NCBI RefSeq assembly: GCF_964204645.1
Contig: NC_134035.1
Coordinates: forward strand, 6,905,101 to 6,969,100
DNA: 64,000 bases
Source of the DNA: Tubulanus polymorphus
Taxonomy: Eukaryota; Animalia; Nemertea
Direction: 5' to 3'
How positions within the stretch are numbered: position 1 is the stretch's first letter; each line of letters begins with the position of its first letter. Below the pieces are notes generated by a model. That model worked only from the letters and a program-made list of their open reading frames with translations. It made no database searches and had not been told where the DNA came from. Below, in pieces: positions 17,727-55,305 of this stretch. A program made the translations under genes and the position numbers.

Positions 17727-20700
17727 ATGGCACAGCGACTACGTGATCTGATAGAGTCGTATAAGAATGAATATGATCCTGGTACTGGTCGACTCAGCCA
17801 CACGTCTGTTCGTCTTGGACTAGTGTTCTATCTTCATAGCCTGAATAAGACAGCAACGCAATTCAAATCAACTGGTGAAAAAGTTAGGAATTTGTCACAG
17901 GATTTCAGCCATTGTAATTTTGATGCTCTGTGTAAACTTATACGGCGAAATGTTCTGGACCTTGAAAGTTTAGAGAAACAAATCGACAGAAATTGGAACT
18001 CTATTTCAAAGTTTCTGGATGAAGACTGTCCGTGTCCATTCCAGTCTTTGGATTTAAGTGCAACCAGATCTGAAACATCTCAACGGTCATCATTGAAAGA
18101 AAATCTCTCTGGGTCTCAGTTATCAGAAGGCCTAGCCGCAGATTTTTTCCAATCATCAGGACTTATTTCCACGCCATTGTCTACGTCGACACCATCTAAG
18201 CGATTGTTAAACCATGATGTGTACTCACCATCACCGAAAAAGTTAAGAGCTGATTGTTCGAGTTGTTGTCATTGTTGTCATCGCCGAGGAGCTGTTAAAA
18301 AGATATGTAAATCAAACCGAAATTACCGGAGAACATTATCAGAATTAAAGTCGATTACATCATTTACTGCCACCAAAGCTCAATTAGTTCAAGCTGTGAA
18401 TCGTAAGACTGAAATAGAGAAGAAATTGAGATCGAAAATTCGTGTATTAGATTCAAAGATGCGCATACAGGAAATGACGATTAAATCTTTGCGAAATAAA
18501 CTGGAAGGTGAAAGTCTTTATGCGGAGATAAAGAAATTAAAAAATCGAATTGCTAAAAACAAGTGTGAAGCAAAAAAACATATTTCTGAGTTAGAAAAAA
18601 ATATAGTCGAAATAGAGCGGCATAATGCAGCGCTAAAGACACAGCTTGCTTCATTGCAAACAGAGTTTTGTGACTTAACCATGCAATTTGAAGATGCCAA
18701 AATGGATAGGAGTGCCAATAATTATTCAATTAATGTGAAAAAGGACAAAAAAACTTATAGTGTATCATATCGCAAAGCGGGATATCATTGTTTGCCACGC
18801 CATTTGGCACGGTCAAAAAGAGCGAACCAGGCCCGGACCAAATTTTGGACCGGTCTAAATATGCGTGTGTGGACAGAAACTGGTACCAGGTCCGGTCTAA
18901 ATCGTAATTCTGAATCTCTGCGGTAGATGTCGTTACCGCTGCGGCAGAGTGTGAGTCCAATTTATTAAGTTTTAAATGCTTTTATTACCGTTTATGTAAT
19001 TATTTTTAAGTACTCTTTTTCCTCCCTTTTCAATGGAAATGTTTGGAGCGTAATTCGTATTCGTATATCGCGATCATCATCCGTTTTACTACCTTGCTTT
19101 GAACCGTGTTTAAATGACACTTAGAGTTTCAGCGTGATAGAATAAAATCAAATTCGCAAAAATGTATAAACGTGACATAGGATCGAATTGGTCAAATGAA
19201 GAATGTCTTGCTCTACTTGGAATCTGGAAGCAAGACTTCATCCAGGCGCAATTAATTATTTAGCAGATGGCGACATCTTGTGGGCCCGATGACAAGCGAT
19301 TTTATCACCGCGTGTCAAAACGCCGTGTGAACGCCCACCAAAATTTGACCAGGTACGGACCCATTTAGGCCGGTCTAACTAGTTGTCGTGTGAAGGCGGC
19401 TCAAGTTTCAGTTGAGGCAACTAGTCGGCTATTGCAACCAATCGTCAAGGAACTCACTGGCCTTGAATTGAACGACAAGGCACATCCAACAACTGTTGCT
19501 CAATTTGCATATGAATTGGGCATCATATCTGAACTACAAGTTGGTGAAATTTTAAAAGATAATGACAACATAACTTTGGCATGGGATGCCACATCTCTGA
19601 AAGGTGACCGTATTAATGAAGTTCATATTTGTGTTTCACGCGAAGATGATGGACAGGTTGGATATGTTTTACAGATTGCTTCATTAACAGGTGGCACTCA
19701 AATGGATTATGTCAGTCATATCAGTCTCTTCAGGAAGTTGCGGAGACATATGCATTATTTCACGACTGTGAATTTGTTGATGTTTATGACTCATTCAAAA
19801 GTCATATTAAAAACTCAATATCCGATAGGGTTAATGTGAACCACTGTGTTGTGACTCAGCTCGAAGAAAAATTAGAGATGAAATTGCTAGAACTGAATTG
19901 TAATCTTCATCCCTTGGATGGCTTATCGCATAAAACTATCACAGTTCTCAAGAATGTTGACACAAGTTATAACGTCATTGGAAAACTATTCGGTAGTAGT
20001 TGCAAGGTTGTGAATGTTATTATTGCATTAAACAAAATGAGGTTTAAAGACGGTAAAGGAGACCCGGCTGATTTCAAACTTTTTATGAAACGTGAAAATA
20101 TTGCGTTTGGTATGATCGTCCGCTACGTGGGTAACCGGTTCCACGTCTTATTCCACTTATGTGGAGTCTACTTTTACTTGCACAAAAAATTACTTCATTA
20201 CCTGAAGTATGCCTGTAACAACAATACAACATTGAAAACTACACTGATTGAGGATTTAATGAACGATCACATAATTATTCATCTACAGGTGCTGGGACTG
20301 TTAGGAAAGGTCGTAACTGGGCCGTGGATGCGAAAATTGTATGCTAATCGAAACAAACTCAGTAACCTGGAGATGGTGCCGTATCTGAAACGCTGCGTCG
20401 AAAATTTGAAATCATTAAATGAGCAACCTTTAGATTTGTTATCAGCCGAAAGTGATATCTTTGGTGAGGAATTACCAGTAGATGAAATTTTCCAATGTCT
20501 TCAGGTCATCCCGCCTCAGGCTGATGAATTCTTTGATGTTTGTAAGTCGCTTACATCCGGATATATATATGTTTTGGAGAATCAGTTGCGCAGATACTTA
20601 GTTGGGGATTTATCATCTCCTACTGCAAGTATGTTATTGCAGACAAGCTCTGCACCAGTGCATGATATGTTCCCAGAAAGAATTATGGGGACTGTAGACT

Positions 20701-21274
20701 CACTCTGCCGCCATGCGCCCAATGCTCAGAGTGGGTTTGTCGATGGGATTGTAAAAAGTAAACAGAACAATACTCTTCAGTGGCTTAACACTAAACCGGC
20801 AAATATCCAGGAGCAAATAGTCGGATTTGCCATCACTCGTGGACGTAATAAAATCTCCGGAAACATCAATCGGATAAAATTACTATCGAAAAAGAAAAGC
20901 GAATTAAGGCAAAGCAACAGAAAAAAGACACACGTGAACGTAACCGTGTTACGAGACAATTCGAGGCAGTCCTAGTTTCTAAGGAACTTGTCGATGGTAC
21001 TGATGAACAAATTCGTTCATTTATCAATGATCCATCTATACTGAAAGATAAATATATCGATCATTCATGGACTGAGGATGATTACCATGAGTGTGTCTAT
21101 CATGGGAAAATCTTAAATGTGAAATCGCGTAAAAAAAACAAAATTGATGTACCCGAATACACTATTGCCTATTGGTCAGATAATGAAGAGGAGGAGGCAT
21201 CCGTTGACTACAAACTCTTGGTTTCGGAGATCCTTACGGACTTGTATTTTGGTGACTTGGTGTTAATTCAGTAA
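17727..21274 (+). pseudogene. Large DDE (hAT-like, CxxH-containing) transposase, interrupted and frameshifted
   Basis: ORFs 17700-18926, 19390-19839 and 19836-20975 join into one protein: coiled coil, LAWDATS (D), SDRVNVN (D), CNLHPLD (CxxH), RYVGNRFH, LGLLGKVVTGPWM, FPERIMG (E), N.TLQWL. The C-terminal frame ends at TAA 21272-21274. TIRs were not located. Confidence 0.7.
18795..19400 (+). mobile_element. Internally deleted PIF/Harbinger-derived element
   Basis: Right end CGTGTGAAGGCGGC followed by TCA, with repeated CGTGTG(A/G)A and GGACC/GGTC motifs. 19162-19263 encodes SNWSNEECLALLGIWKQDFIQAQL (Myb/SANT-like start). It interrupts the transposase between YHCL and QVSVE. Confidence 0.65.
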
Positions 21275-22398: not shown

Positions 22399-25300
22399 AA
22401 ACTCAACAGCAGTAATTAGGAAATGTGGGTTTCAGGCCAGAGTACGAGACACACTACTCATCACCACAAGTAATTTTTTTTCCTCACTAACCACCACAAG
22501 TAATTTTTTCCCATAATAAATGGGAGATAGTGAGTACCAGACAGAAAACAATGATGTTAATAAAAATCAATATTATTGACCATATTGTAAAAAATACGTC
22601 GAATAAATCAAATAAATCTCATCATGAAAAATCTGCAAATCATAAAAAAAATGTTATAGATTTTGAAACTCCAGAAAATTCCAATGAAAGAAAAGAACGA
22701 TTAAATATGAAAATAGATGAAATGAATTGTGAAGTTTGTAATGAATTTATAGTAAAAAGGAATTTTAACATCTCGAATGACAAAAACACCAACAAAATTT
22801 TAATAAAAATATTTTAGGAACAGAATATTTTGATGATTAACCTCAACAAGTAAAAAAATCAGCTTCAAAACTAAATCTATTTCAAATAAACCTTATATGG
22901 AAAATGTTAGAAATTATATCGATTTAATAGAAATAGAAGATATAAATTGAAATTTTTGAAACATGACGTAGTAAAATTGGTCCTGCAGCTATTATATTTG
23001 GATTTTTTTATAGGCGCAACAATAGAAGAGATTATGGCAAATATATTGAAATAATGGAAAAAATAATGGACCTTGTAACACATGTTGAATATCCAAAGAT
23101 TAGTATCTCTGGAAAAGTAAGTTTTATTAAGTCAGAAGAAAAAATGGATTATAATATTCAAACATATTCTGAAGAAATAATTTAAAAAACACACAAAAGA
23201 GAAATTAGAAAAAGTATTTAATGAATTTGAATGCATATTGAAGAAAGATATTTTGAGGGTTCTGGCTTATCATTGAATGAAATTATATTTTTTAGATTTA
23301 AATATTTATAATACAAAAAAGAATAAAGCATCAAAAAGTAATAAAATGTTTACAAATGATTCAAACTTTACAACAGAAAAGGATATTAAAGCATCATCTT
23401 ATATTAAATTACCATTTACAACATAAGCAGTAATAAATGTTCAAAATGAAGATAATAAATGTTTTCTATGGTCAATTATAAGTTGCTTACATCCAACAGA
23501 AGAACATGTTTATAGAATAGCAAATTTAAACAAATAGATTTATTCTTTAGAACGGAAAGTGATCACCATCGTAAAATTTATCTATGTAGAAAATTTTTAT
23601 CTAAATTTATGACCGAGAATGCATTATTAAAACATAAAGAATTATGTGATAATAAGATTTTTGTAAATTAAAAATGCCAACAAAAAAAGATCATAAATTG
23701 AAATTTACTAATCATGAATTTAAAAACATAGTGCCATTCGTAATTAGTGGGGATTTTGAATCGTTGAATAAAGAATTAACTGATGAAGATAGAAAAGAAA
23801 TATATAACGAAAAGCAATTTTTATAATCAATGGACAAAGGAAATGAATTAAATGAAGACATAATTCAAGGCCCACCAATTATAAACACAATTAAAAAAGT
23901 TCATCAAAGAGCTGCTGCTTATGGAATTTATATAAAACCAAATTATCCTGAATTATATAAAAGTCAATATATTTCGTTTAGAGGTGAAGATGTAGTAAAT
24001 GAATTTTGTAATAAAATAATTGAATTAGAAAGTGATTTTGCAAAATTATTAAACAAAAATAAGAGAATAGTTATGACAAAAGAAGATGAAATTGATTTTA
24101 ATTATGCAACTCATTGTTGTTATTGTGAAAAACGTTTTTATTCATTTGATAAAAAAGTTAAAGATCATGATCATTTAAATTCAAAATATCGTGGAGCTGC
24201 TCATGAAGATTGTAATTCACGAGCTAAAAAAGTAAATTTCGTACCCACTTATTTATAAAACAATTATCAGGAAAATTAGGTGCAAATAATCAAGAAATAG
24301 AAGAATATAATGCTAAAAATGATTTAAATGTAAGAAAATATGATTTTAAACTATTAGCTAAGACATCTGAAAATTACATTTCATTTCAATTTGGTTGTTT
24401 GAAATTTTTAGCAAGTTCATTAGATAATTTAGGAAAAAGTTTAGTTGATAATGATTTTGTAATAACTCGACATTATTATCCAAATAAATAGATTATTGAG
24501 ATATAAAGGTGCAATTCCTTATTCATTATTGGTTTACCTTTGTAAGCGATATGAGGTTGGCATTGAGCCAATTCATGTAAGATCGCGGTACGTTTTTTTA
24601 TGTGAGCATTTGTTTCATTGGTTCTCGGCTTAAACAACGTATAATCGATGCGATTGAAGACATGGCGAACCTCCGTCGATGTACATGGTCAACTGAGTTA
24701 AAATTCTACGAAAAACTGTTCTTGGTGGGAAAATTCTTAGCTCTCGCGTATAAAATTGCAATGCTCGATTGGCGGGCGTCGTCTCTACGAGCGAATGGGA
24801 TTGGCTGTTTTTGGGATTATCGGGGAATTCCGGCGCTACTAAAATAATTATGGGAAAGCCATAGAATGGTGTACGCTTCATGGGTCTAGGTGCCGTATAC
24901 GTGCGAATTTTAAATGCTCATTGCTGGTGAGGATGTAATTATTTCACACATCCGCCATAGGTATTGTTTCATCTTAATACCCGGTGATTGTTTTGATTGA
25001 CATTGAAGTGTAAGCGAACAATCACTTACATGAGGCCTCCACCTGTGCGCGCAGAGTGCTACACGACACACACACACACACAAGCTCGTACAGTACACTA
25101 CTCAAGGTGATGCTGTAACGCGTGCGCGTTTGACATGAAAATAGGCTGAATAATCGTAGCAGAAGATGAGCGCTGTGTTTTCTGTTTGATAGAATTTGTA
25201 ATAAATGTGTAACTGAAAATATTAAGCAGCGAACTAAAAGTATAGGTCGAGGTCTGAATATTGTAGTGGTAAATTCCAGGATTTATAACGATCTAATAGC

Positions 25301-25406
25301 CGATTTCTTCTGTACCGGTATTTTAGCTTCCGCGGTCAACACTGGAAGAGGTTTCCATGACCCAATATTCAGCCACCCTCTGATATGTGACATCATATGA
25401 ATTTTA

Positions 25407-25698
25407 GGCCATCCCAAAATAATGGTCTGTTTGCCGTAACCCGACCGAAAAGTCGTAACCGAGTGAAAACTTTTTTCTGGGATTCATTGAAATAAATTTT
25501 ATTTTAGATAAAAACGGCCGACCGACCCACTGCCTACATATGAGCTACGTATTATATATGTTTGAATTCAAGGGTGCATTGTGTGAAAACTTGCCTAGTC
25601 AATGTTGCCTAATTTAATTTTTCCAGGAAACTGGCAGTTTTCCATCCTGAAAAGTTGAGTCGGTGTTACGGCAAACAGACAATTATTTTGGGATGGCC
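25407..25698. mobile_element. MITE with ~33-bp TIRs and TTA TSD (Zator- or PIF/Harbinger-like)
   Basis: GGCCATCCCAAAATAAT.GTCTGTTTGCCGTAAC and its reverse complement, TTA on both flanks. Absent from the sister copy near 42685. Confidence 0.85.
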
Positions 25699-25711
25699 TT
25701 ATTTGAATATT

Positions 25712-27972
25712 TTTAGGCCAGCCGTAGGCTGAGCCTATTACTATACAAATGGAGCGAATTACTATACAAATGGAGCGAATTTAAATGACATGGTTTCCAC
25801 ACAAAAGGCTCTTTTGCTTGCCAAGTGAGGGCATATTCGAACAAATCACGTATTTAAGCGTAATCCATTCTCGGAATCGTAGTGAGCAGAATTTTGAAAT
25901 AGGGTCTCATAAAAATGTTTTCTGCATTTTTCACGAAAGTTAAATCGGGAAAATTTCAATTTTTATCAGCCAATCAGGAAGTTGTGTCTTCCCTGTGATT
26001 GGTTTATCTGAAAATATCAGCAGCTGTTCACGTGAATTATCGCGATTTCATTACTGGCGCTTTTGCGCATGACGTCATGTATCAACACGCGACAATACTT
26101 CCGCGTTCGCTACGTGTTCGCTGATTGGCCCATTTACTGGGAAATTCCACAGAAGCCTAATGTGGTTTGTAACAAGCGCTGTGATTGGCCCGACCCGATT
26201 CTGGCATGGCTTTAGCTTAGTGGGTTCGAATCCCTTGACGGGTGAAGATGATGGATCCTATCAATATCTATTGAAAAAAATAAGTTTCCCGGTTGGGCAG
26301 CCACGGATATCTACCGGAAGTGTTCCGGTTCGATATTTCGAGGTTTCTTTGAATTTTGGAGTGATATTGAAATCCGGTAAATACCAGCGGTAGATTGTGA
26401 AAACCCATTGCATGATATTTGTATTACTTAATCAACGAAAAGCATCAGGGCCGCGCCAGGAGTTTTCGTGATTCAAGTAGCGCAATAGCCTACTTCTTCG
26501 TGTTCGTCCACCTCAATTTTCACTCCGCCGATCTCTGACACGGCTCTGTTCCCGTCGGCGCTGTGATTGCACTTTCGTACCACCAAAATTTTTTATTTCT
26601 ATATCAGGGAGGTCTGGAGAATAAAAAAGTCAAAATTTGGATATCACATAGGCCTGATTTCATCGAATAAGTCGACCATGGTCGTTACGTTTCCGTACTT
26701 ATTACCACCTAAAACCGTCTGAACAATTTTGTCACAACCAACATTTCGTTTACAGAAATCAGGTGTTCACGTGAATCCGCGGTATCGTCTACTGTTTTAC
26801 TTCCGGGTTTTATTTTAAGATTTAAAATTGTATTTCAAGATCGATTTCTATGAAATCTTTAGTTGATTTGGTGTTTGGGAGGAATTTTTATTTGCTCTAC
26901 AGAAAATTCATCCTTGACAATTGCGCAAGGTTCGCGAAAAAAGGTTTTACCAAATCGGGTGTGTGACCTTGATATGCTAATTAGCCATGTGCCCGAATTG
27001 CAAATTCAATCAAATTTTATTCTGCCAAAAAATGTTAAATACAATTCGCTTTCCGAGAGTTAATGGTATGCTGCATGGAACAAAGTTGTTTTGAGATGGG
27101 TCTTGAAGCTATTGAGGTCGAGAGATAACCATCTAGATAGTTCGTGAGAGTTCCAAAGTTTTGAAGACGCTTCAAGGTAATGTCTTGATATTTGTTTTAT
27201 ACGTGTATCTACACTAGACACATCTTCAGGCCAAAAACTGGCCCTGTCAGATTCAAGATGGCCGACTGGCAGCCATTGTTGTTCGCCAAAATCAGCACTT
27301 TTTACACATTTTTGAAGTTTTCGAGGGAAATTTTGAAGACACTTTTATCAATAACCTTGATCATTCGTATATATTTGTATCCCCCAAGGGCCCATCAGCA
27401 TGAGAAAAATTGAGTCGATCGGACTCAAGATGGCCGTACTGTGACCTTTTTTGTTCCCAAAAATGTCAATTTTGGCCTGAATTCTGAGTACTGTAGCTTT
27501 CTAATGGTGTGCCATGTTTCATTGCAATTTGTAATGGGTATTCTTTGGAAAGGGATCTTTTATATCCGAGAGGGTATTTTTGACCAGGCAATTATGACGC
27601 ACTTGGCAGCCATCTTGGGGTCATCAGTACTCATTCGTAGGTGGAAAAAAAGTTTTTCCACATCATAATTGATACTTAAGCATATTTTGCTACTATAATC
27701 AATTGGAAAGTTGTAGCTCATGACATGTTCTATGATCGAGGTGAGTTTCAAGCTCATTGTTTTTTTTAATGGCCACCAGGGGGCGTTGAACAATACAATA
27801 ACTTAGTATTTCTATATTACATTCGTTCCTGCTGTCTGTGTTAACACACGATTTTACTATGTAAATGATATTGAGCAGGGAGTGTATATTGATAAATATA
27901 ACCCACAGATTACATCATTTATAAAAAGCAAATCTGACAGGCTGGCCATTGTGCCCCTTGGGGCTCTTGTTT
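25712..27972 (+). mobile_element. HINE family B, full copy, chimeric with HINE-A internal sequence (27158-27830)
   Basis: 5' TTTAGGCCAGCC and 3' GGCTGGCC, hairpin GCCCCTTGGGGC, TCTTGTT. Inserted in a T run; the empty site is at 42691-42710. Confidence 0.75.
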
Positions 27973-29313
27973 TCATATTGTGAAACATATTTTTTGGAAA
28001 ATATAAAATAATTTCCCTGCCACGCCTACCTGTACCCTACAAACTTTTGGACGTGGACCGTAACCAAGTGTATATCTTTGGTCTTATTTGACTACAAAAT
28101 AATTCTTTAAGAAAGATAAAGTACAATGTAAACTTGTGGAACTTTGAAGTCACGAATTAAAATGATTTTTCAAGCAATGCCCTTACTCCAAACAACCTCT
28201 AGCTTTCAAGGTAAACCACACTTTGCCCATGGGCAATTTATTCAAAACACTCGATGATTTTAATGTAACAGAATTATTAAAAGAACAATTTTATGATCAA
28301 TTAAAAAATGAGTATGTGAAAGATGAAGTGTTTAATAGAACATTAAATATTTGGAATATTTAAGATAAAAAATCATGGTGAATTAGTAGATTTATACTTA
28401 AAATCAGATGTTATGATATTGGCTATATTTGAAAATTTAGAGAAGTTAATTTAAATCATTTAAATGTTGATCCTTGTTATTGTTATTCAAGTCCTGGTTT
28501 AACTTGGCAATGTGGTTTGAAATATACAAATGTAGAACTAGATTTATTAAAAGAACCAGACATGGTATTATTATTTGAAAAATCAATTAGAGGTGGAATT
28601 AGTGGTGTTATGGGCGATAGGTATTTTAAAGCAAATGATGAATATAAATTATTATATATTGACGCCAATAATTTATATGGTTGGGCAATGATACAACCTC
28701 AACCATATAAAAATTTTCAATTAACAGAAGTTGAAAATGATGATAAAACTAATTGGGAAAGCGCAATTATGAGTTTAGAAGATGATGCACCTATTGGTTA
28801 TTGCTTTGTAGTTGATTTAGAATATCCTGAAAATATAAAGTTTGAAACAAGAAACTTACCCTATTGCCCAGAACATTTAGCTGTAGATGATAGTTATCTA
28901 AGTGAATACCAGAAAAAAAATAATCCGAAAGATATTGTTTTTCGAAAAATTAATATTAACACAAAATAATAAACTCAATTATATCGTTCATTATAGAATG
29001 TTAAAATTTTATCTAAAACAAGGATTGAAATTAAAGAAAGTACATAGATATATTGAATTTAATCAATCGAAGTGGTAAGAAAAATATATAGATTTCAATA
29101 CTCAACAGAGAACAATATCTAAAACAGATTTTGAAAAATCATTTTTTTGAATTAACGAATAATAGTCAATGAAAAGAACGTCAATTGAATTTAATAAACC
29201 TATATTCATTGGATCAACTGTTTCAGAAATATCAAAATCATTAATGTATGATTTTTATTATAATGTTTTACAACCACTTTTTGGGGAAAAACATTGAAAT
29301 ATTATATTTTGAT

Positions 29314-30261
29314 TCTGTAACAGATCATACTCCAATATTATTAAAATACAATAATCAAATATTAATTAGAAGAATTTCAGAAATAATTTCTAACAAAATG
29401 AACGTTATATTTCATATGGTGAAAAAGAATTAATACAAATTAATGGATATTTTGACAAAAATGGATGGAAAAAGTTAAAGAATATTATTAGACATAAAAC
29501 AAATTATAAGAAGATTTATATAGTCAGAACTAAATTAGAGTTTGTAGATGTTGCAGAAGATCACAGTTTAATTAAACAACATGGTGATGAAATAAAACCA
29601 ACTGATATAAGAATTGGAGATGAATTATTACATAAAGGATTTTACCCAAGAATGAATCATATGTCATTTGATAAAATAATTGATAAAATTTATAATAGAA
29701 AACCAGAAACATTAGAAGAAAAAGAATATTTGATTGAAGGATTTTTTATGGGAGATGGTTCAGCAGGTGTGTATAATTATGTTAGAGGCAATAAATATTG
29801 TTGGTATATTTTCACGCAGCATTTTTCTCGGACTGCTGAGTAAACCAGCGACAACCAAGAAGACGAAACTAAACGTTGACAATGTTCATATTTCTTCGTT
29901 TCTATTCTCTGCCATAAATCTATTACATCCCAACATTGCTTTTAATTGTCAGAATCAAAACCTTATATACTATTTTAGTGATGACATATACTTCAACAAA
30001 AGAAAAGATAGTTCCAGATCATGTATTAAATGCAGAATATATTCTTAGAAAATGGTTCTTCATTGGATTCTATGCTGCAGATGGCGCAAGAAATTTACGA
30101 GTTCTCCAATAATAACATTTGCACAGAAAGGAAAAGTTGGTATATCAGGATTGAATCTATTATGTAATTCATATATATAATATATAACCCATCAGATTAT
30201 GTTTATAATTTATCAACTGAAGATGGAACATTTCACTGGATTTCCATTATTTTGCGTCAAT
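29314..30261 (+). other. Degenerate intein with LAGLIDADG homing-endonuclease motifs inside pPolB
   Basis: YFD|SVTDHTPILL (block A); GW...K.IIRHKT; FVDVAEDHSL (block B); IKP.DIRIGDELLH; YLIEGFFMGDGS (block C); FFIGFYAADG (block E); QKGKVGISGL; YVYNLSTEDGTFH (block F); GFPLFCVN|TDS (block G, +1 Thr). Confidence 0.88.
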
Positions 30262-30699
30262 ACTGACAGTTACATACTAAAAAACAAGACAAATGACATA
30301 ACTAAAGACTTAAAAACATTAAAACATCATTTTGATTTTAACAATTATCGAAAAGATCATGAATTATTTAGCAATGATAGTCAGAAAATTCCTGGTAAAT
30401 TTAAAGATGAATTAGGGGGTGATGAAATGATTGAATTAGTTGGGATATGAAGTAAAATTTATAGTTATAGAACAAAAGACCATGAAGCTAAAAAATTAAA
30501 AGGAATAACAAAGCATGTCGTTGATAAACACATAGAATTTCAAGATTATATAAAGTATTTATAAAACTCAATTGTAATGAAACATAAAATGAATTGTTAA
30601 AGATCAGAAGATCACGAGACGTGAAAATCCATTCGACGATAAAAGACATATTTTGGGTGATGGAATAAAAACATTACCTAATGGTTATTAAAAACAGAA

Positions 30700-31550
30700 A
30701 ATCAATATCATCATACTCAAAATCACTATTGGTTTCTTTATTTTCATCAAATTCTTTTTCTATAATTTCTATAGGTTCTTCCATTTCATTTTTCTCATTT
30801 AAATAAAATTCTATATTATTCCACATTTCATCTCGCTCTCCTTGTTTCTTTTTGTTTTAATTCATAAAATTTACAATCTTATTTAAAAAGAATTCATAAT
30901 TAATTGATTATGTTATTTAATTATCCACATAATATTTTAATATGTTTGTGAATCTTTTATATTTTCCATATCTTCCTTGTTAATTTAGGTTTTTTATAAT
31001 AATCGTTAAATAATGAATATAAATACATTTTCTTTTCTTTTGTGTAACATGTTGATGGAATAATTGTTTTTATTATATCTTTCTTAGTTATTTCACCATT
31101 TTTATTTTCTATCATTTTCATTTTTTTCAAGCCATTGCTTATATTCTGGTGTATGATCTTCCATAGAAAATATCTTAAAAATTTCATCTAGATATTTTAA
31201 TTTTGGTTCTATAAGAATATCTCTAGTTTTTTCATCACCCCATAAATTTTTTTGCCATCCACATTTATTACAAAAAATCACAGAATCTTCTTGTCTTAAG
31301 TATTTATAAATACATTGTGGGCAATTTTTTCTATCATATCTTGGCAATAGATCTTCATTAAGTTCTTGGTATTTTCTTATGTTTTCTTTATGTTTTATTG
31401 TTCTATTATGGAGATTTGAATTACTTGTTGTAATAATCAATGTACAATATATACAATAATATGTTTTTCTTACTAATTCATTATATTGTCTTTCTAACTT
31501 TTCAAGTGTTTCTTTATTATCTGGTAACGTTTTTTCATATTTTATTTTTT
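30700..31550 (-). pseudogene. Zinc finger plus VLTF3-like (poxvirus A2L-type late transcription factor) viral gene remnant
   Basis: YCIYC...LH.RTIKH finger, CPQC..(9)..FCNKCG ribbon, and C-terminal INYEFFLNKIV ... ERDEMWNNI; frameshifted. Confidence 0.5.
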
Positions 31551-31629
31551 CTTATATATTATTAATCAATTAGAAAAATATAGCTGCAAAGCAGCGATAA
31601 CGGGTTTTCTGTTGTCTTAGAATCCTGTT

Positions 31630-31895
31630 CATCAGTGGATTTTGACAAAGCATTTGATAAGGCACAACATCAGCCATTACTAACTAAACAGGCTATTTGG
31701 AAACAGTATCAATGATAGGTCGCCCAAATGGCTCAGCAGTTATCTCTGAACGAAAACTTATAGCCAAAATCAACGGAACGCCTCATCTTGGAATAAGTCG
31801 GTCTAACTAGTGGAGTCACGCTAGGTAGTATCCTAAGTCGTCTACTGTTTAATGTCCTGACAAATGACGTAGACAGTAATCCAGAATATACCGCA
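31630..31895 (+). pseudogene. Degraded non-LTR (CR1/L2-like) reverse transcriptase fragment; partial duplicate at about 33330-33450
   Basis: VDFDKAFDK..H..LLTK and TSGVTLGSILS.LLFNVLTND. Confidence 0.6.
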
Positions 31896-32442
31896 AATCA
31901 ATTGTGACAAAGTATTGATGCGACCATGTACCGAACACTATTATTGTGCCCCAGCATTTGGGGTCATTCTACTTGAACCCCAACATTCAATATGTCCACC
32001 AGATTCTGGTGGTGATAAAGTCATTTTAATTTTTCTGCCAACTTCATTTCTTCTTTCATATTCATCTAACATTAAACATCATTAAGAATGCGTCCCCTTA
32101 TTGAAATTAGGTAAACTATCTCAATATATCGATGTAACTAGGAAGACCTTATTTAAAATGTGATTTTTATGTCGACTTTTTGCGATATTGTCTCAATAAA
32201 TTGCCATACGTATCACGACATTTTAGCTAAAGGAGTGATAATTATGTCGACGGTATGCGGTTATGTTGAGATACAGACGTCGACATTGGTGAAAGGCGTG
32301 ATCCGTATAACGATTTATCGTGATATTAACACGATATATCGACTTAATTATGTCGATAAATCGCGATATATCACGTTTGTTCGACATAATTTCGCCGCGA
32401 TAAAAGGTCGCGACAGTTTTGTACGGGTCCCATATATACGGA

Positions 32443-32862
32443 AGTACGGAAGCGATAAAGGGTCCAAGTTGTCGCGTTCCAACTCAACAAAGTCGCCATA
32501 TTTATGTCGACATATCGCAATATATCGCTTCAAGTCGACATGAATATGTCGACATATTGTGACGTTTTGACGACAAATTTCGTTTTCTCAACCATTTTCC
32601 TCGCAACAATTCGGCATATTCATGACGACTTGAAACTCAGTCGCCATATAACTGGCGTCCTCATCTTACATTTCGACGTGTCTTCAAATGACGGCTTGTC
32701 CCATGGAAAATGGGCGAAAAAGCGAAATTTGTCATGAAAACGTCACGATATGTCGACATATTCATGTCGACTTGATGCGATTTATCGCGATATGTCGACA
32801 TCAATATAGCGACTTGTTGAGTTGGAATGCGACAACTCGAGGCCCTTTATCGCTTCCGTACT
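32443..32862. mobile_element. Fold-back MITE with ~155-bp imperfect TIRs
   Basis: AGTACGGAAGCGATAAAGGG and CCCTTTATCGCTTCCGTACT termini; arms are rich in ATGTCGACAT. Confidence 0.75.
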
Positions 32863-32949
32863 ATATTAGATTAATCGACTTCAAAATAGGCGAAAGCATA
32901 AGTCTTTATTACGTTATTAATTGGCCTAATTATTCAAAAGCTAATAAAG

Positions 32950-35680
32950 TGGGCGACAAAACCAAAAAAATTAATTGTCGCGGGCGATTAAACCAAAATA
33001 ATCAATTGTCGCGGGCGATAAAACCAAAATAATCAATTGTCGCTGGCGATAAAACCAAAGTATTGAATTGTCCCGGGCGACAAAACCAAACTAATGAATT
33101 GTCGCGGGCGATAAAACCAAAATAATGAATTGTCGCTGGTGATAAAACCAAAATATTGAATTGTCGCAGGCGACAAAACCAAAACAATGAATTGTCACGG
33201 GCGATAAAACCAAAATCTTGAATTGTCGCGGGCGACAAAACCAAACTTATGAATTGTCGCGGGCGATAAAACCAAAATAATGAATTGTCGCGGGCGACAA
33301 AACCAAAAAAAAACCGACTTGTAACCGAAGTCTTCTTCTGTTTAATGTCCTGACAAATGACATACACAGTAATCCAAAATATACCAGACCGAGTAAATTT
33401 CCAAAACAACCTTAACACACTGTTCGACCAAAAACTTAATGTTCCGGGCAAAACCACGGGCGACAAAACCAAAATTATGAATTGTCGCGGGTGATAAAAC
33501 CAAAATATTGAATTGTTGCGGGCGATAAAACCAAAATAATGAATTGTCGCAGACGACAAAAACAAACTATTGAATTGTTGCGTGCGACAAAACCAAAATA
33601 ATGAATTGTCGCGGGCGACAAAACCAAACTAGGGGTCCAGGGACACCATGCTCACTTGGGCAGTGGTTTCAAATGCTCAACAATCTAACAATTTCAATTC
33701 ATAACGCCCTCTAGTGACCATATATAAAAACCAATGACCTTGAAACCCACCACAATCATAGAACATGTGAGCAGCTATGATTTTGTAATTGATTGTGATA
33801 ACAAAATATGCCTCGTTACCAATTTAATATGGAAATACTAAGTTATTCTACTATTCAACGCCCCCTGGTGACCATATGCAAAACCCAATGACCTTAAAAC
33901 TCACCACAATCGTGGTACATGTCATGAAATACAACTTTGCAATCGATCATAGTAACAAAATATGCCTAGGTACCAATCTAATAAGGAAATACTAAGCCAT
34001 TCTACTATTCAGCGCCCCCTGGTGACTATATGGAATAACTAATGTCCTTAAAAACTCACCACAATCATAGACGATGTCATGAACTACAACTTAGCAATGG
34101 ATCATGGTAACAAACTATGCCTAGGTACCAATCTAATAAGGAAAAACTAAGCTTTTCTACTATTCAACGCCCCCTGGTGACTATATGGAATAACTAATGT
34201 CCTTAAAACTCACCACAATCATAGACGATGTCATGAACTACAACTTTTCCATTGATCATGGTAACAAAATATGCCTTGGTACAAATATAATATAGCGATA
34301 CTAAGTTATTGTATTAGTCAACGCCCCCTGATGGCCACATACAAAAACCAATGACCTTTAAACTCACCAAAATCATGGAACACGTTATGGGCTACAACTT
34401 TCCAATTGAATATAGTAACACAATATGCTTAGGTATCAATTAATTGTGGAAAAACTTTTTCCCACCTACGAATGAGTACTGATGACACCAAGATGGCCGC
34501 CAATTGCGTCATAATTGGCTGATCAAAAATACCTGTCCCAGGTATAAAACATCCCTCTCTAAAGAATATCCATCAGCAATTGCAATGAGAAATGGCAAAC
34601 CAGTAGGAAGCTACAGGACCTAGAATTCTGGCCAAAATTGACATTTTTGGGCACTAAAAAGGTCATAGGACGGCCATCTTGAGTCAGATCGACTCAATTT
34701 TCTTTTGCTGATGGGCCTTTGGTAGATTCAAATATAAACGAAAAATCAAGGTAATTGATCAAAGCGTCTTCAAAATTTTCTTCGGGCGACAAAACCAAAA
34801 TAATGATTTGTCTCGTGCGACAAAATCAAAATAATGAATTGTCGCAGGCAATAAAAACAAAATAATGAATTATCTCGGGCGATAAATCCAAAATATTTAA
34901 TTGTCGCTGGCGATAAAACCAAAATAATGAATTGTCGCGGGCGAAAAAACCAAAATAATGAATAGTTGCGGGCGATAAAACCAAAATGATGAATTGTCTC
35001 GCGCGACAAAACCAAAATAATGAATTGTCGCGGGCGATACCAAAATAATGAATTATCGCGGGCGACAAAACCAAACTAATGAATTGTCGCGGGCGACCAA
35101 ACCAAAAAAAGAATTGTCGGGGCGACAAAACCAAAATAATGAATTGTCGCGGGCGATAAAACCAAAATAATGAATTGTCGCGGGCGACAAAACCAAAATA
35201 ATGAATTGTCGCGGGCGATAAAACCGTAATAATGAATTGTCGCCGGCGATAAAACCAAAATAATGAATTGTCTCGGGCGACAAAACCAAAATAATGAATT
35301 ATCGCGGGCGATAAAACCAAAATATTGAATTGTCGCAGGCGATAAAACTAAAATATTGAATTGTCGCGGGCGACAAAACCAAAAAAAAAATTGTCACGGG
35401 CGACAAAAACCAAATATAAAACCAAAATAATGAATTTTCGCGGGCGACAAAACCAAAATAATGAATTGTCGCTGGCGATAAAACCAAAGTAGTGAATTGT
35501 CGTGGGCGATAAAACCAAAATATTGAATTTTTGCGGGCGACAAAACCAAAATAATGAATTGTCGCAAGCGATAAAACCAAAATAATGAATTGTCGCGGGC
35601 GATAAAACCAAAATATTGAATTGTCGCGTGTGACAAAACCAAAATAATGAATTTTCGCGGGCGACAAAATCAAAATCATT
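32950..35680. repeat. 31-bp tandem minisatellite (GAATTGTCGCGGGCGA(C/T)AAAACCAAAATAAT)n, interrupted at about 33310-33455 and 33627-34780
   Basis: Direct reading; period is 31 (e.g. 35161 to 35192). The repetitive ORFs in the track are artefacts of this array. Confidence 0.95.
33627..34780 (-). mobile_element. HINE family A copy, 5'-truncated, with five ~155-bp units
   Basis: Begins AACTAGGGGTCCAGGGACACC, the reverse complement of the HINE-A 3' end. Confidence 0.85.
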
Positions 35681-35999
35681 GTTTTCTCGCCTTATTTTAG
35701 TTTTGTTGTTTTGTCGTAATGTCGCCCTCATTTGCATATTCGTGTTTTTTTATCTTATCAGCCACCATACTAAAGCCTTAAGGTCGCGTAAAACTCGATA
35801 AACACTTCAAGCGACACAGCGAACGATCTCCTTTCCCCCACAGCGAACGCTTACTCCGAATGTCAAGTGTGAGTCCAGCATACGGATAGGAGTGTGTTAT
35901 ATACTTGTATTTAGTAAATACCTTGTGCATTTGACAATGATCGGTATGTACTGTAGGAAATATAGAGTATTGATAAATGGTTGAAGCCCGCGGCCGAAT

Positions 36000-38602
36000 A
36001 AAGTAATATATTCTTTTATTTTGATACCTCGTCGACATAACAGCTTTTCTCCGCCATATCTCTTCGGCCTTTGCTTTTCGAAAATACGAATCTGCTGCTT
36101 ATAAAGCTCACGAATCCAAAGAAAACGTCATATTTCTTCAAAAATATCTCCAAGAACAGGTTATTCCTAAATCTCTGAATTGGTTGAATAAATTCAAATC
36201 AGATCAACCATTTTCCAATGAAGCAGCATCTCATCTAAGACATTGCATTTTGGAAGCAAAAGACACTACCAACTCCAATTTCTATAAAATGCGTCAAGCA
36301 GAACGTTTTCTCAGACACCATATACCTGATGGTTTCCTTTGGCACTCTCTTCATTCGGGCATCAAGAATCTTTGCGCGGTACATCGTCTAAAGAAAAATT
36401 CGCATTTCTCTTCCATTCTATATAAATGAATCGACAACAGCCCTTGGACCAAATTTTGCGCTACTGATAATGTTGTCAATCTATCTTCGGCTAAATTAAC
36501 CAAAACACAAATTCAAGTTCTCGGTTTAGGATCAAATTTCTCTCTCCCGCATAGAAAACAACACATTTTGGATTTCGTTGAACGTATGGAAAGATCTCCT
36601 CCGGCTAGTTTTCAATACAATTTTATATTCATGAATTTGGACACCATTTGGAATACCCTTCAAGGTCAATCTAATCAGTTCTTTCCTCGGAGATTTTCGA
36701 TTGCTCTCCAGGAACTGAAATCCATCAAAACCATCCGCATCTCCAAGGCTGATAAAGGCGGCAAAATTGTTATTCAAGATTTGATCAATTACAATTCTAA
36801 AATGATTGCTATTCTCGGTGATTCCAATTTCTACAAATCCATCAAAAACAACCCTTTGAAAAAGATGCAATCAGCTTTTAATTTAGGTTTAAAAAACATC
36901 TCCAAGAAATTTCCTGACCATTCGGACTTCATCTCCAAATTTAACTCTCGACTTCCAAATCTTCCTTATGCTTATGGTCTTCCAAAAATTCATAAACCCA
37001 ATTCACCGTTAAGACCGATCATTTCTAATATCAATTCTCCATCATATCGGCTCTCCAAATATCTGGCTAAAGTACTCTCCCCGGCTTTGGGTACTTTTTC
37101 TGATTCTCACATTCGTCACAATATGGATCTTTTAGACAAACTCAAAAATCTCAAACCTAATGGACAAAAATTTATATCTTTCGACGCTGTTTCCTTGTTC
37201 ACTAATATACCATTGGAACCAACTCTCAATTTCTTAAGAAGAAAACTCCCGGACTCCAATCTTCATCTCCCAATTCCTGTAGAATGTTTACTTGAACTTT
37301 TGGAACTCTGTACTACCAATTTATATTTCCAATTCCAAGACAAATTCTATGAACAAATTTTCGGTTTCGTTATGGGTAACCCATTATCCCCGATTTTGGC
37401 TAATCTTTTCCTTGAACACTTTGAATCCGAAATTCTCCCTAAGTACGCTGGCTCTAAACCTAACTTTTGGATTAGATATGTTGATGACATTCTGAGCTTA
37501 GTTTCTGATAATTTTGATCTTACCTCTTTCATCGACTTCATCAACTCCCAATATCCATCTTTGAAATTCACTTTTGAATAGGAACAAAATGACCAAATTC
37601 CGTTTTTAGATGTTCTAATTCACAATAAATTTTCTCATTTGATTTTCTCAGTCTACCGTAAACCTATCAACGCCGAGGCATACCTTCACTTCTTTTCGTT
37701 TACTGCCAAATCAATCAAAATCGGTCTCGCTCAAGGCCTCTTTCTCCGTGCACTGCAGATCTGCGATGAAACCTTCCTTTCGGCTGAATTTGACCATATA
37801 TCCAACTCTCTTAGAAAATTGGCTTTCCCTGATCACATTTTGAAAATTGCTATTTCTAAGGCTAAACGTACTTTCTTCAATTCTAAACCTCCAGAAAATA
37901 AAAAACACATTTCAGAGTTCATTGTAGTTCCGTATGTACCTGTTTTGGAAAGGTTTCGTCACTCTCTCCCTTTATTGGATAAACAAATCATTTTCACGTA
38001 TGAAAACAAAATTAGTAAGACTTTGGTTAAAACAATCAATCTAAACCTTTGGACTGCGAAGTTTACAAAATTCCTTGTTTTGGCTGTGATAAAGTTTACT
38101 TTGGAGAAACTGGTCGTGATTTAAAAACTCGAATTTCGGAACACAAAAAGGATATAATAAATCAAAAACCGGCTAGTGGCGTAGCCAATCACGTTTGGAA
38201 CACTGGTCATCGTTTTAATTTTGATAAAGCCGAAATTATTTATACTTCCAGCAATTACACTAAACGCCACATAGTTGAGTCTGCCCTAATTACTCGTCAC
38301 TCAGATATTAGTACCAATTTAAATAATGGCTTTTCTCCGCATAATTCCCTTCTTTCTAAGTATATTACTTCATGCCTTGCCAAACACTAATTATTTACTC
38401 ACTCACCAATTTACTCAATTAACCTGTCCTCCTCTGTATATATACCCCTGTTTTAAGTCTATTTCTCACACCTGACGATGATCTCTAGGGTGAAATCGAA
38501 ACGTCGTGTCTTTTAAATATTTTAGATTTAATAAATAAATTCTTGTTTTTAAATTCTTTTAATCTGTAAATAGTGGGATTTTATCTTATTTCTCTTCGGC
38601 CT
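36000..38602 (+). mobile_element. Penelope-like retroelement (RT plus GIY-YIG endonuclease) with a few stops and a frameshift
   Basis: FLQ.YL.EQVIPKSL, VVNLSS..LT..QIQVL.LG.NF, KADKG, YGLPKIHK...PLRPIIS, SFDAVSLFTNIP, MGNPLSP.LAN, RYVDD, PFLDV, VYRKP, VYKIPC..C..VYFGETGR.L..R..EH. A 12-bp direct repeat TCTCTTCGGCCT occurs at 36059 and 38591. Confidence 0.93.
38468..38509 (+). ncRNA. Minimal hammerhead ribozyme-like motif in the Penelope 3' pseudo-LTR
   Basis: ACAC-CTGACGA-TGAT...ATC-GAAA-CG-TC-GTGT; conserved core with a palindromic ACGT stem III. Confidence 0.6.
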
Positions 38603-40292
38603 GTTTAATTTAGGCCTACCATTCCCCGGTACACTAAAGATTTATCTTAGTAAATACACGGTTAATTCGGTAAAGAAAAATAGGTAATGTTAAACTAACT
38701 CCTTGAAACCCGCAGCCAAATCACTGGTAGTAATAAATTAATTTGTACTCGATTTGATTCTCATGATGAGGAGAAACTCGCAGCTCATCCCCGGAACGTC
38801 GATGTAGTAACACACGTCGATTCGTCGATGTTTACAGCTCGACAGTGCTTTTAAAATCTAAAGTAGTAAATTTCCAGTGTATCGGTAATATGATTTGATG
38901 AGGAAAATGGGCTATTGTTAAAATCACTGTTTGAAGACCGCGACTGAATGGCAATAAAATAGTTCATTTATACTTGAATTGATAATCGAAGTGACAGTCG
39001 GCCTGCGGGTTGATTTCGGGATGACGACTCGAAAAACATGTCGCCCCATTGAATGGGGCTAAATTTTCGATGTTTACAGACCGACAGCGCTTTTGTAACA
39101 ATGATTCGTGAAAAAACACGCGGGCTATTTGTAGATCTCAGTGAGCTGAACGATATTATATGGATTGTATATGAAACAGCGGTAAGGTAACAAAGCCTAT
39201 GTTCTTTTGGTAAAAATAGTGTGGAAGAAAATAATAATAATAATAATCACGCGGATATCAATAGGGTTTTCTGTGATGTAACAGAAAACCCTAAATATTA
39301 AAATGAAATAACTTTAACTGCTTGTAGTTTCTATTTCATTTTAATATTTTTCTAATTGATTTCTTATTGAATCTTTTTAAACAATAGAATGACTAGAAAT
39401 CAAATCCATTTAAAAAGAAGTTAAATAACTTTAACTGTTAGTATCACTCTTGTATCATTTGATTGTTTTTCTAATTGAATGAACTAACTAACTAATATCA
39501 CTCTTGTATTATTCTAGTGCCGCGTAAAGAATGACAATATCATATATGAATAAATTTTAAAAAGTTCTGAATTAATACTGAGACTTCAGTTTCAGAAATA
39601 AAGCATAATTTGTATTTAATGCCATTAATACGTATTTAATACCATTAATACCTCAACCCCTTTTTTAATTAACTTATATTTCAGCCAATATATTTTATAT
39701 TTTCAGCCAATTTGACAGTCTTATTCTTAATTTATCATTTAGTTTATGAATATACAATCTACTCAATTTAATACTTAAACACTTTAACAATCTAACGGAT
39801 TCATTGTAATACTCTTTTAATAATGATAAAAGTTAATATATGATTGAATATGATTTAAACTTTTCCAGTGTTGGAAATATAAAATATATTAGCTGAAAAT
39901 TTAAAATATTTGTTAAAAAATAGGAATATGATAGAATTTTGAATTGTCTATGAGTGGACGAATTGGAAGAATGGACGTGTGTAGGAGGGTAACATATATA
40001 AATTATATATGTTTTTTATCTAAAAAACAGTAAGAGTTTGATTTTATACTATATTTAGATATTGTTTTAATAAAATATATATATATATTATATCTATACT
40101 CGTACTATTCTTCCAATTCGTATGTTTAAATGTAAAATATATATATTATTACACTCGTCCATTCGTCCACTCTTCCAATTCATCCACCCGTACCATTCGT
40201 ACCATTCTTCCAATTCATCCACTCTTACCATTCTTCCCATTATAAATTATATAATATTTTTATAAAAAGATTATTCTTTTTTATTTTCAAAC

Positions 40293-40600
40293 CTAATTTG
40301 AATTATATAATTTATCATTAAGTTCATGAATATACCTGTGATTCCTTAATGATTTTTCATTTTGATACCTTTTATTACAGATTTTACAGCATTTAATATT
40401 ATTAATTCTATCTGAAATATAATTTATGTTTTCTTTTAATTCTGTATACCTAATTTTACAGTTATCAAAGAATTCTAATAACTGTTTTAATGAGTTAACT
40501 GAGAATGAAACTAAACCTGAAACCATAATAATCAATTTAATGCGCTCTTGATTTTTGTATATAAGATGTAATATTTCTCATTCCTTACTTTCACTCATTT
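40293..40600 (-). pseudogene. Small viral-type ORF remnant with a C2H2 zinc finger
   Basis: CKICNKRYQNEKSLRNHRYIH. Confidence 0.5.
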
Positions 40601-40990
40601 TTATAGTTCAAGTGTATTAGATAAATTAAATTAAAAGATGCTGTCTTAATCCTCTAAATAATTTACTAAATCAACTTTTTTATTCTTTCTATTTTTATTA
40701 TTCCATTTAATTTCTTTAATTTCTTGCTTAATTTCATATTTTCATTCATCAAATCTTTACTGATATTTTCATAGTAAAAGTAAAGCGCGGCTTATATTAA
40801 ACCTCTGGCAACTAAATAATGTTTCAAACCACTATTTCCAGTTGGAATAAAACCATCCATTTATTTAAGAAAAAAAATTAAAAAATTGAAAAATATTTAC
40901 TAGTTTTTGATTTAATATTTTATAACCATTTTTGAAATATTAAACTTTTATATGATTAAATCAAATAACAATTAAGCAGTTATTCATTAA

Positions 40991-41635
40991 CTAATTTCTC
41001 AATGTTATAACTATTATATATTTGAAACATACAGCTTGATCTTTTTTCAATATAGAATTATTATTCTTTCGATAATTGATATGTTTAATTGTTTGATAAT
41101 GTTTTGATTTATGTGATTTTAAATATTTACCCCCGCAATAACAATACACTTTTTTCATTAGGATTGAATTTTTTAAATTCATCATCTAAATTACATTGAA
41201 TTCCAATATTTGATGAATTTTCATTATACATAATTTGTTTATTATCAAAATTTAAATAATATAATTGTCTTTTTTCAATTCTTAAGTTAATCAAATCATT
41301 GTAATCTTTAGAAAGTATTAAATCACTATCTCTTTCATTGAAAGGAGTTTGAAGGATATTTATTATGTTTTCATCTAAAGTCCCTTTATAATTTAAAACT
41401 GTATTGAATATTTTAGGATTTTTGATTCCATTATCAAAAGTATCAATTAGTTCAGTAATTAAATATTTTTCATTTGATAATATTTGATTAATTATAGTAA
41501 TATTATCGATTTTATATTGTCTTGCATACACTTAATTTGTTGCTGAAATATAATTTTTAATGTTTAACAGTGAAAATTAGTTATTGGTTTCATTGATTTC
41601 GATTTTGAATTTGGGTTCTTCTTCTTTCTTCATTT
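40991..41635 (-). pseudogene. AT-rich viral-type ORF remnant with a C-terminal CxCG...H....KH zinc finger
   Basis: ORFs 41127-41531 and 40991-41185 are joined by a frameshift; VYCYCGGKYLKSHKSKHYQTIKH. Confidence 0.45.
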
Positions 41636-41829
41636 TTATAAATAAACATTTTTTAAAATAAATCTAACTCATTCAAATATATATACTCAATCTTAAAAAT
41701 ATAAATTATTTCAATCACACTTTACTCACACTTTTTATGTTTAAAAATCAAGAATCATATAAAAGCATATAAATATAAATATTCATGTTTTAAATATAAA
41801 TTAGTTACCACGCACTTTACTCACACTTT

Positions 41830-43075: not shown

Positions 43076-43228
43076 GAGTAATAGGGAATATGGGGGTTCA
43101 GATTATAGGTTGAAGGGGCGAGTGAGTAAAAAATAAAAAATAAATTTGAGCGTGCGAGAATTTATTTTTATTTTTTATGAGCTAGACCCTTCGACCTTTG
43201 ATCTGAACCCCCATATTCCCTCTTACTC
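43076..43228. repeat. About 153-bp imperfect palindrome
   Basis: GAGTAATAGGGAATATGGGGGTTCAGAT...AAAAAATAAAAAATAAATT, loop, AATTTATTTTTATTTTTT...ATCTGAACCCCCATATTCCCTCTTACTC. Confidence 0.85.
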
Positions 43229-53919: not shown

Positions 53920-53969
53920 CCGATTTTTCCTACGTCTTGCGGGGGGTATATACAGCGGTACAGGGGGGA

Positions 53970-55086: not shown

Positions 55087-55305
55087 AATTACTATTCTTT
55101 TATATAAATGACACAGAAAATACAGGACCGCAAATAAATGTAGGGGAAACAGGCACTTAAAAATACTAAATATGTACTAGGAATTACGAAGTAGGTAAAA
55201 AAATACGTTAAGTACATACAAAAAGTAACAGTAATTTACACAGACTAAACGGAGAAAAACGTGTTCACCGCTTCAACTCAATTTCAACTGGTTTTTTCAC
55301 AATCA

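Follow-up and report, generated by a model that had tools for sequence, protein, structure and literature searches.

A 64,000-nucleotide stretch of genomic DNA (the window) carries, in motif C of a decayed family B DNA polymerase gene, a 948-bp insert with the features of an intein. Our main reading, to which we assign a probability of about 80%, is that this is a LAGLIDADG intein in a protein-primed polymerase (pPolB) of the Polinton/adintovirus class, borne by a multi-copy element in what is likely an animal genome; intact relatives are predicted to splice and are likely to home, and the window copy is dead. The features of the locus are as follows.

22602–24528, plus strand: N-terminal part of the polymerase, a frameshifted pseudogene (residues 25–772 of intein-free P0420 match in order by tblastn; P0002 and P0305 likewise)
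24079–24222, plus strand: Endonuclease VII/HNH-like domain inside the polymerase (Pfam PF02945, E=0.0043, below cut-off)
24529–28234, no strand: nested host repeats/transposons splitting the polymerase, 3.7 kb (P0002 residue 776 lies at 24528 and the match resumes at 28235)
28235–29313, plus strand: N-extein, ending in YFD (67–86% identity to intein-free P0304)
29314–30261, plus strand: intein, pol-c allele, Hint plus LAGLIDADG endonuclease, dead copy (192 bits against an independent intein profile)
29314–29340, plus strand: intein block A, Ser first (sequence, profile match)
29544–29570, plus strand: intein block B, VDVAEDHSL (His kept, usual Thr replaced in the window copy)
within 29730–29762, plus strand: first LAGLIDADG motif (block C), EGFFMGDGS (sequence, profile match)
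29808–29987, no strand: foreign 180-bp stretch replacing the middle of the endonuclease (depth, contig divergence, GC)
within 30056–30085, plus strand: second LAGLIDADG motif (block E), IGFYAADG (sequence, profile match)
30198–30261, plus strand: intein blocks F and G, Asn-terminated, with a frame break between them (sequence, profile match)
30262–30691, plus strand: C-extein, with the +1 Thr (TDS), remaining palm and thumb, and stop codon (76–85% identity to P0304 residues 578–728)
31105–31551, minus strand: AT-rich zinc-finger ORF remnant facing the polymerase (Pfam zf-U1, E=3.6e-6; summed depth high, like the polymerase; GC ~0.23)
39300–41826, minus strand: AT-rich ORF remnants, one with a C2H2 finger (GC 0.19–0.28, like the polymerase; zf-C2H2_6, E=1e-4)

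The insert in polymerase motif C

A first-pass annotation of the window had proposed that an intein splits the polymerase motif YxDTDS, and the split is as it claimed: the insert at 29314–30261 sits precisely between YFD (29305–29313) and TDS (30262–30270). Its first residue is Ser (SVTDHTPI from 29314) and its last is Asn, followed by the +1 Thr of TDS. All the motifs that had been named are present, namely the Ser start, VDVAEDHSL, EGFFMGDGS, IGFYAADG, the block F-like YVYNLSTEDGTFH at 30198–30236 and the Asn end. Blocks A, B, C, E, F and G all occur in order, spread over different reading frames by several frameshifts, with breaks near 29390, 30095, 30180 and 30237. Block B reads VDVTEDHSL in all six of the complete protein-primed relatives examined and the window copy differs at the Thr, whereas two dodecapeptide motifs with acidic residues are found in the window intein and in each of the six relatives.

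For an independent comparison, a profile of 80 inteins from RNA-primed-type PolBs was used, from which the protein-primed ones were excluded. The window read-through, with X at each break, scored 192 bits against it, while the best of 200 shuffles (178 of them reported) reached 7.2 bits. Five of the six intein pieces scored singly and in profile order, the sixth, of 8 residues, being without a reported score. Profile positions 164–221 are missing from the endonuclease, which is incomplete in the window copy and has foreign DNA in their place. The profile check suggested in the first-pass annotation was positive for the intein profile but not for Pfam, which gave no intein match among 26 window pieces, five of these being broken pieces of the insert. 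A PDB sequence search with the broken pieces likewise returned no intein family and weak matches alone (PI-PkoII, E=0.009). Structural prediction was applied to the intein of the intact relative P0037 and not to the broken window copy. The AlphaFold2 model (pLDDT 90, pTM 0.90) had PI-PkoII, TliVMA and PI-PfuI as its best Foldseek matches (E 2e-17 to 3e-15), with PI-SceI also found, and the predicted fold matches archaeal intein-endonucleases, Hint fold included. The proposed LAGLIDADG intein is borne out by the profile score, by the site, which is pol-c (PMC549080), and by the fold matches of the relative's model. At the level of sequence we regard the insert as confirmed to be a class 1 intein of the pol-c allele with a two-motif LAGLIDADG endonuclease.

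Sequencing data came from four runs of one organism in one study, which may include the window's own source and are hence not independent. In run X1 the summed contig depth, which is not a copy number, was 12,000–34,000 outside 29808–29987 and 69–212 inside it, roughly a hundredfold drop. Contigs of other copies diverge from the window at 29807 and 29988, continuing there into different sequence. The stretch 29808–29987 is foreign and specific to the window copy; its GC is 0.34 versus 0.26, and it had no protein match within the protein set compared. The idea that it is an inversion of the intein was not upheld by self-BLAST or protein comparison. This stretch, the far-upstream polymerase start (~22600) and the 3.7-kb insertion at 24529–28234 had been overlooked in the first-pass annotation.

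Contigs of other copies bridge the N-junction in all four runs and, among the pieces listed, the C-junction in X1. No joint that removes exactly the intein was seen among the contigs listed in the four runs; one contig skips 29294–30299. Across these runs many diverged contigs span both polymerase and intein, a 98%-identical contig of low depth covers the left flank, and host repeats are inserted into the polymerase gene, which together argue against misassembly or a free virus. With about four frame breaks, the replaced block B Thr, 180 bp of foreign sequence and a transposon lodged in the polymerase gene, the window intein copy is dead. The suggestion that this copy is frameshifted and that intact copies may exist elsewhere was correct on both counts, five intact ORFs having been found.

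The polymerase, its element and the host genome

The polymerase gene spans ~22600 to 30690, with intein-free P0304 and P0420 mapping across it, and its start codon may lie near 22520. Motif A, YIDANNLYGWAM, is at 28655–28690, and ~50 codons have been deleted from the N-extein near 29150. Residues 530–576 of P0304 map to the left of the insert and 578–697 to the right, indicating a precise insertion. The exteins match pPolB and not RNA-primed PolB (PF03175 is found in P0002, P0037, P0053 and P0163), and Mimivirus PolB matches the window inside the intein only; the first-pass annotation had likewise taken the exteins for protein-primed PolB. The Endonuclease VII domain, below the Pfam cut-off in the window, is above it in P0006. 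The window polymerase is best classed as a protein-primed family B enzyme of a divergent class with an Endonuclease VII/HNH domain.

Self-BLAST identified a second copy of the outer element of the nested insertion at 41827–42970, matching 24526–25404 and 27970–28242. These are copies of a non-coding element of ~1.15 kb, 83–88% alike and with short inverted ends; both lie in or beside the AT-rich element, and a 2.6-kb insertion interrupts the first of them. The zinc-finger remnant at 31105–31551 is likely part of the same element as the polymerase, and the remnants at 39300–41826, judged by composition only, are possibly its far end beyond later insertions. Imperfect palindromes lie near this possible end, at 39954–40187 (244 bp, 69%) and 43076–43228 (154 bp, 81%). 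No inverted pair marking a left end was found by self-BLAST (matches >80 bp), the ends being buried in later insertions.

Pfam searches of 56 pieces of the remnant, which covered 31700–38400 in part and whose sensitivity is lowered by decay, detected no integrase, capsid, ATPase or protease gene, and comparison of the window with 276 ORFs from 22 related viral contigs gave no match of these four kinds in the remnant. Polymerases of the same class (30–38% identity to P0305 in 21 of the 22 loci) reside on viral contigs of 15–20 kb. Three of the 22 contigs were scanned (L126, L128, L133): an A32 ATPase and an rve integrase were present in each, and a jelly-roll capsid recognised by Pfam in two (L126, L128). 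None of the 276 ORFs from these Polinton-like viral contigs carries this intein. The first-pass description of a Polinton-type element stands for the class of the polymerase but not for hallmark genes; we therefore call the polymerase Polinton-class by its sequence and do not file the remnant as a full Polinton, since integrase, capsid and ATPase were undetected in it.

Elsewhere in the window, at 17667–21274 (plus strand), long ORFs of 419, 156, 441 and 140 aa resemble a broken DNA transposase, with no convincing Pfam family. At 32951–35676, 33703–34456 and 58024–58626 lie a 31-bp tandem array of up to 29 copies and the repeat that interrupts it, whose 154-bp unit is found again at several places in the window. 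Also present are a stop-broken Penelope-type element with reverse transcriptase and GIY-YIG domains (36025–38390, plus strand), a Gypsy-type LTR element (48674–55176, minus strand) that is fairly intact and has an additional SGNH/GDSL-like ORF (E=0.0098), and a LINE (60264–63315, minus strand) whose open frame spans 864 aa. BEL/Pao elements are known only from animals, and Penelope-like elements are animal-biased.

Other accounts of the locus have to be set against this evidence. An assembly chimera, or contamination with giant-virus polymerase DNA, might be suspected from the 42–49% identity of the intein to the Mimivirus intein, but that account is already refuted, as both exteins match protein-primed PolB only, the junctions are spanned by contigs of other copies, the same arrangement occurs in five independent intact ORFs and host transposons sit in the polymerase gene. 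A better-founded proposal accepts the intein and places it on a small protein-primed-polymerase element of ~7–8 kb that lacks capsid and integrase and inserts via other elements. The AT-rich remnant sums to ~8 kb and shows no hallmark gene, and the nearest intein-free full-length relatives are on contigs of 4.6–7.2 kb from four sources. However, the same class of polymerase occurs on the 15–20 kb contigs with ATPase, integrase and, in two of three, capsid; the window copy is old, has taken many insertions and may have lost genes by deletion; and short contigs may be assembly fragments, P0002 lying on a 13-kb and P0304 on a 17-kb contig. We judge the small element unlikely, while granting it appreciable weight.

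A host other than an animal, that is, another eukaryote with a transposon-rich genome and the intein in a protist-type Polinton-like virus, seems improbable. No host gene was identified in the window, and the named animal matches to the polymerase are just 38–44% identical, which leaves room for such a host. Nevertheless, all the named eukaryotic extein matches are animals (Ruditapes, Mytilus and two Leptopilina), the other named matches being three bacterial labels on fragments. The nearest clusters to the window LINE have Arthropoda, Ctenophora and Cnidaria as their commonest phyla, with two clusters labelled Bacteroidota, and the window holds a BEL/Pao-like LTR element (DUF5641, E=3e-4, below cut-off) as well as the Penelope-type one. 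From its transposons and extein matches the host is likely to be an animal, and an intein on a multi-copy Polinton-class element of an animal genome remains our preferred reading.

Intact relatives and movement of the intein

Five distinct intact protein-primed polymerases with the intein were found: P0002 (1693 aa), P0037 (1537), P0006 (1504), P0044 (1509) and P0053 (1603). When a single intein piece was used as query, the six best of 26 matches were protein-primed polymerases, ahead of every RNA-primed one, and broken intein-bearing polymerases were also many in the database searches. Both intein-plus and intein-minus relatives, for which the first-pass annotation had suggested a search, exist: among 187 protein-primed-type proteins, a sample biased by the queries, the intein was recognised in 22 and an empty motif C in 71, while 94 showed neither by the criterion applied. 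One more intein-bearing protein-primed polymerase, at L039:562–580 (minus strand), has an endonuclease with two in-frame stops close together.

The five intact inteins and that of L039 share Ser1, VDVTEDHSL, two LAGLIDADG motifs, a terminal Asn and a +1 Thr. Pfam LAGLIDADG_3 is above cut-off in P0002, P0006, P0037, P0044 and P0053; for Intein_splicing (PF14890) P0037 is above it (37.7 versus 35.8) and P0002, P0006, P0044 and P0053 are below. The penultimate His is present in P0037, P0006, P0044 and L039, and not in the window, P0002, P0053 or Mimivirus; 123 of the 246 pol-c inteins excised end in KN.

Single-protein searches for related loci gave nothing in viral contigs or prokaryotic genomes. 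With a DNA pattern, all 20 matches in viral contigs were inteins of RNA-primed-type PolBs, and the 23 in metagenomes comprised seven of RNA-primed type, one protein-primed (L039) and 15 by chance; an N-junction pattern gave four matches, all by chance, and the phage collection a single weak unannotated match to the intein. Three polymerases similar to that of the window (P0309, P0310 and P0313; 58% over 161 aa) bear the labels Bartonella and Sulfurimonas and are likely host or element DNA in bacterial assemblies.

Intein trees were drawn from 194 non-redundant inteins plus that of the window, with 73 and then 43 rows. The seven protein-primed inteins formed one clade in four trees (100/100 in the mixture tree of 43 rows), the window intein being nearest to P0002 (63% identity over 238 columns). 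The polymerase tree (52 rows) left out 74 candidates that were short or without motif C. Its eight intein-plus rows need seven changes, much as in shuffles (mean 7.6), and a single clade of intein-plus polymerases was rejected (AU test, p=9e-5, 7 versus 41 rows with four long branches dropped). The nearest relative of the window polymerase is intein-free (80% over 465 columns). The intein of P0053 is 42–49% identical to the other protein-primed inteins while its extein is merely 23–25% identical, and its polymerase has a best BLAST E of 0.003, versus P0163. An intein like the others within an extein of another class would mean a transfer of the intein from one of the two main polymerase classes to the other. 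Separate trees of intein and extein, as the first-pass annotation had advised, agreed with its scenario in part: the inteins are one clade and the polymerases are scattered, but nesting of the inteins within those of giant viruses was not upheld.

The P0037 cluster has 136 members. Among the 15 listed, on 15 contigs of 57 kb to 1 Mb, seven are intein-plus, six have an empty site and two stop short of the site. Over residues 1–1020 the intein-plus copies share 98.6–99.4% identity with the three closest empty copies and show zero fixed differences from them, and all 12 fixed differences lie within residues 1035–1085, around the site at 1041|1042. This tract fits co-conversion during homing, and target-site escape by the empty copies could be a second reading. 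In a family that is 95–99% identical, the empty alleles (P0159, P0161–P0166) have three versions of motif C, YFDTDA, YGDTDA and YTDCDS; these may represent escape from the endonuclease, a reading that three different empty motifs would fit. The patchy distribution and the difference tract would be indirect signs of cutting by a homing endonuclease.

Vertical inheritance of an intein ancestral to these polymerases, with many losses and no ongoing homing, has to be weighed against this. The main-class intein tree does roughly follow the extein tree (window/P0002, P0037/L039, P0006/P0044), and change counts cannot separate gain from loss. Yet P0053, whose polymerase belongs to another class, has an intein that groups with those of P0002 and the window (96/84), the nearest polymerase relative of each carrier is intein-free, the pair P0006/P0044 excepted, and a sharp difference tract in 99%-identical copies is unexpected from precise loss. 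We consider vertical inheritance highly improbable and favour a mobile intein.

Such an intein could operate as follows. It separates YxD precisely from TDS, so that without splicing the active site of the polymerase would be disrupted, and motifs and fold predict class 1 splicing by Ser1, the block B Thr and His, the terminal Asn and the +1 Thr, restoring YxDTDS. The endonuclease would cut the empty site of a second element present in that cell, and repair templated by the copy with the intein would bring in the intein together with some flanking DNA; a multi-copy element would offer many targets within one genome. The tree can be read as one intein lineage that reached pPolBs and moved at least six or seven times, once across classes. 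It may have originated from a giant-virus PolB in a co-infected cell. The wider picture, in which self-splicing, endonuclease-bearing inteins reside on Polinton-class elements in animal germline chromosomes and home within single genomes today, with empty copies diversifying the target, a jump between classes and an arrival from giant viruses, has in our view slightly better than even odds.

Source of the intein and comparison with known systems

By identity, giant-virus-type inteins are the closest kin of the protein-primed ones (40–45%, versus 22–32% for most archaeal inteins). The named rows of this type are Mimivirus, ChoanoV1 and GVMAG contigs, and one row bears an Asgard archaeon label. 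In a quick rooted tree the protein-primed clade was nested among giant-virus-type inteins. However, a giant-virus-type clade excluding the protein-primed inteins was not rejected (AU test, p=0.81), the constrained tree being 29 log units better, so that nesting was not upheld; the test dropped 13 rows (nine of the Nitrososphaerota group, two bin rows, P0114 and P0018). The giant-virus-type origin put forward in the first-pass annotation is consistent with closeness by identity, but a sister arrangement was at least as good. A giant-virus PolB would be the likeliest source by similarity.

A subgroup of giant-virus pol-c inteins has an unusual GFPL end that is common to the protein-primed inteins; as a marker of the donor clade it was not upheld, and the trees leave the sister group open (66/84). 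Several giant-virus pol-c inteins are only 221–277 aa long (L001, L005, L010, L012, L016, L017, L026 and L037) and likely have a reduced endonuclease; that of L008 is 471 aa. Many archaeal genomes of mesophilic ammonia-oxidiser type (L051–L076, some labelled Nitrososphaerota) have a pol-c intein of ~316–336 aa in PolB, which is closer to viral inteins than those of Thermococci are. In 2005 the archaeal PolB inteins described were from extremophiles only, according to the available part of PMC549080.

Inteins have been described as absent from animal genomes. If the hosts are animals, the present inteins are an exception, though within a selfish element and not a host gene. The pol-c intein would be able to move between RNA-primed and protein-primed polymerases, which have little in common apart from a six-residue motif, and such a crossing suggests DNA exchange between giant viruses and Polinton-class elements that meet in one cell. 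The 99%-identical intein-plus/minus family would allow a direct measure of homing, co-conversion and target escape.

In the literature within reach, which did not extend to subscription journals or Repbase, no protein-primed polymerase was described as containing an intein with a splicing domain. In the sections available, nuclease insertions in polinton pPolB are said to 'result from intein invasions' (PMC11071308), inteins are mentioned just in general terms (PMC12220804), and the word intein is absent from the main text of PMC8502044, bioRxiv 10.1101/2023.08.22.554363 and bioRxiv 10.64898/2026.06.19.733378. The PMC11071308 passage anticipates intein invasion of these polymerases as a suggestion on homing-endonuclease domains, in which no Hint domain, splice residues or empty alleles are named; that published suggestion now becomes a testable case. 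What we describe is a known intein allele that had no earlier report, in the searchable literature, from this class of polymerase or, probably, from this kingdom of genomes, and it comes with a comparative sign of recent homing. Inteins are known in insect iridoviruses, as given in part of PMC549080, and therefore splicing in animal cells is not new in itself.

Polinton/Maverick and adintovirus PolBs have been divided into Alpha and Beta classes, in the part of PMC8502044 available. The window polymerase is in the divergent class, which matches PF03175 weakly and has an Endonuclease VII/HNH domain, whereas P0053 is in a class with a stronger PF03175 match (E 9e-32); from the definition there, we infer that the former is Beta and the latter Alpha. 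Insertions of HNH or VSR nucleases are carried by pPolB1/pPolB2 (bioRxiv 10.1101/2023.08.22.554363, in part). As described there, the known pPolB nuclease insertions differ from the window intein in being plain domains without a splicing domain, at other positions.

The pol-c site is occupied by inteins in Mimivirus and in archaea, as described in the available portion of PMC549080. The Mimivirus PolB intein, which when excised from P0106 reproduces the published 1053–1403, resembles those described here in its YGD|TDS site, length of ~350 aa, Ser start, Asn end and +1 Thr (PMC549080, in part). It also shares the block B Thr and His and the two LAGLIDADG motifs, with 42–49% identity to the intact protein-primed inteins. 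Its host protein, in contrast, is an RNA-primed, Pol-delta-like enzyme of a giant virus of amoebae, with exteins 24–26% identical to protein-primed exteins, whereas here the host protein is a protein-primed polymerase, encoded by a chromosomal element in multiple copies. The pol-c inteins of archaeal PolBs (Thermococci, Methanocaldococcus, Nitrososphaerota; L051–L123) have the same insertion site and fold, but they are 22–32% identical over full-length matches and, unlike the inteins described here, reside in cellular single-copy genes.
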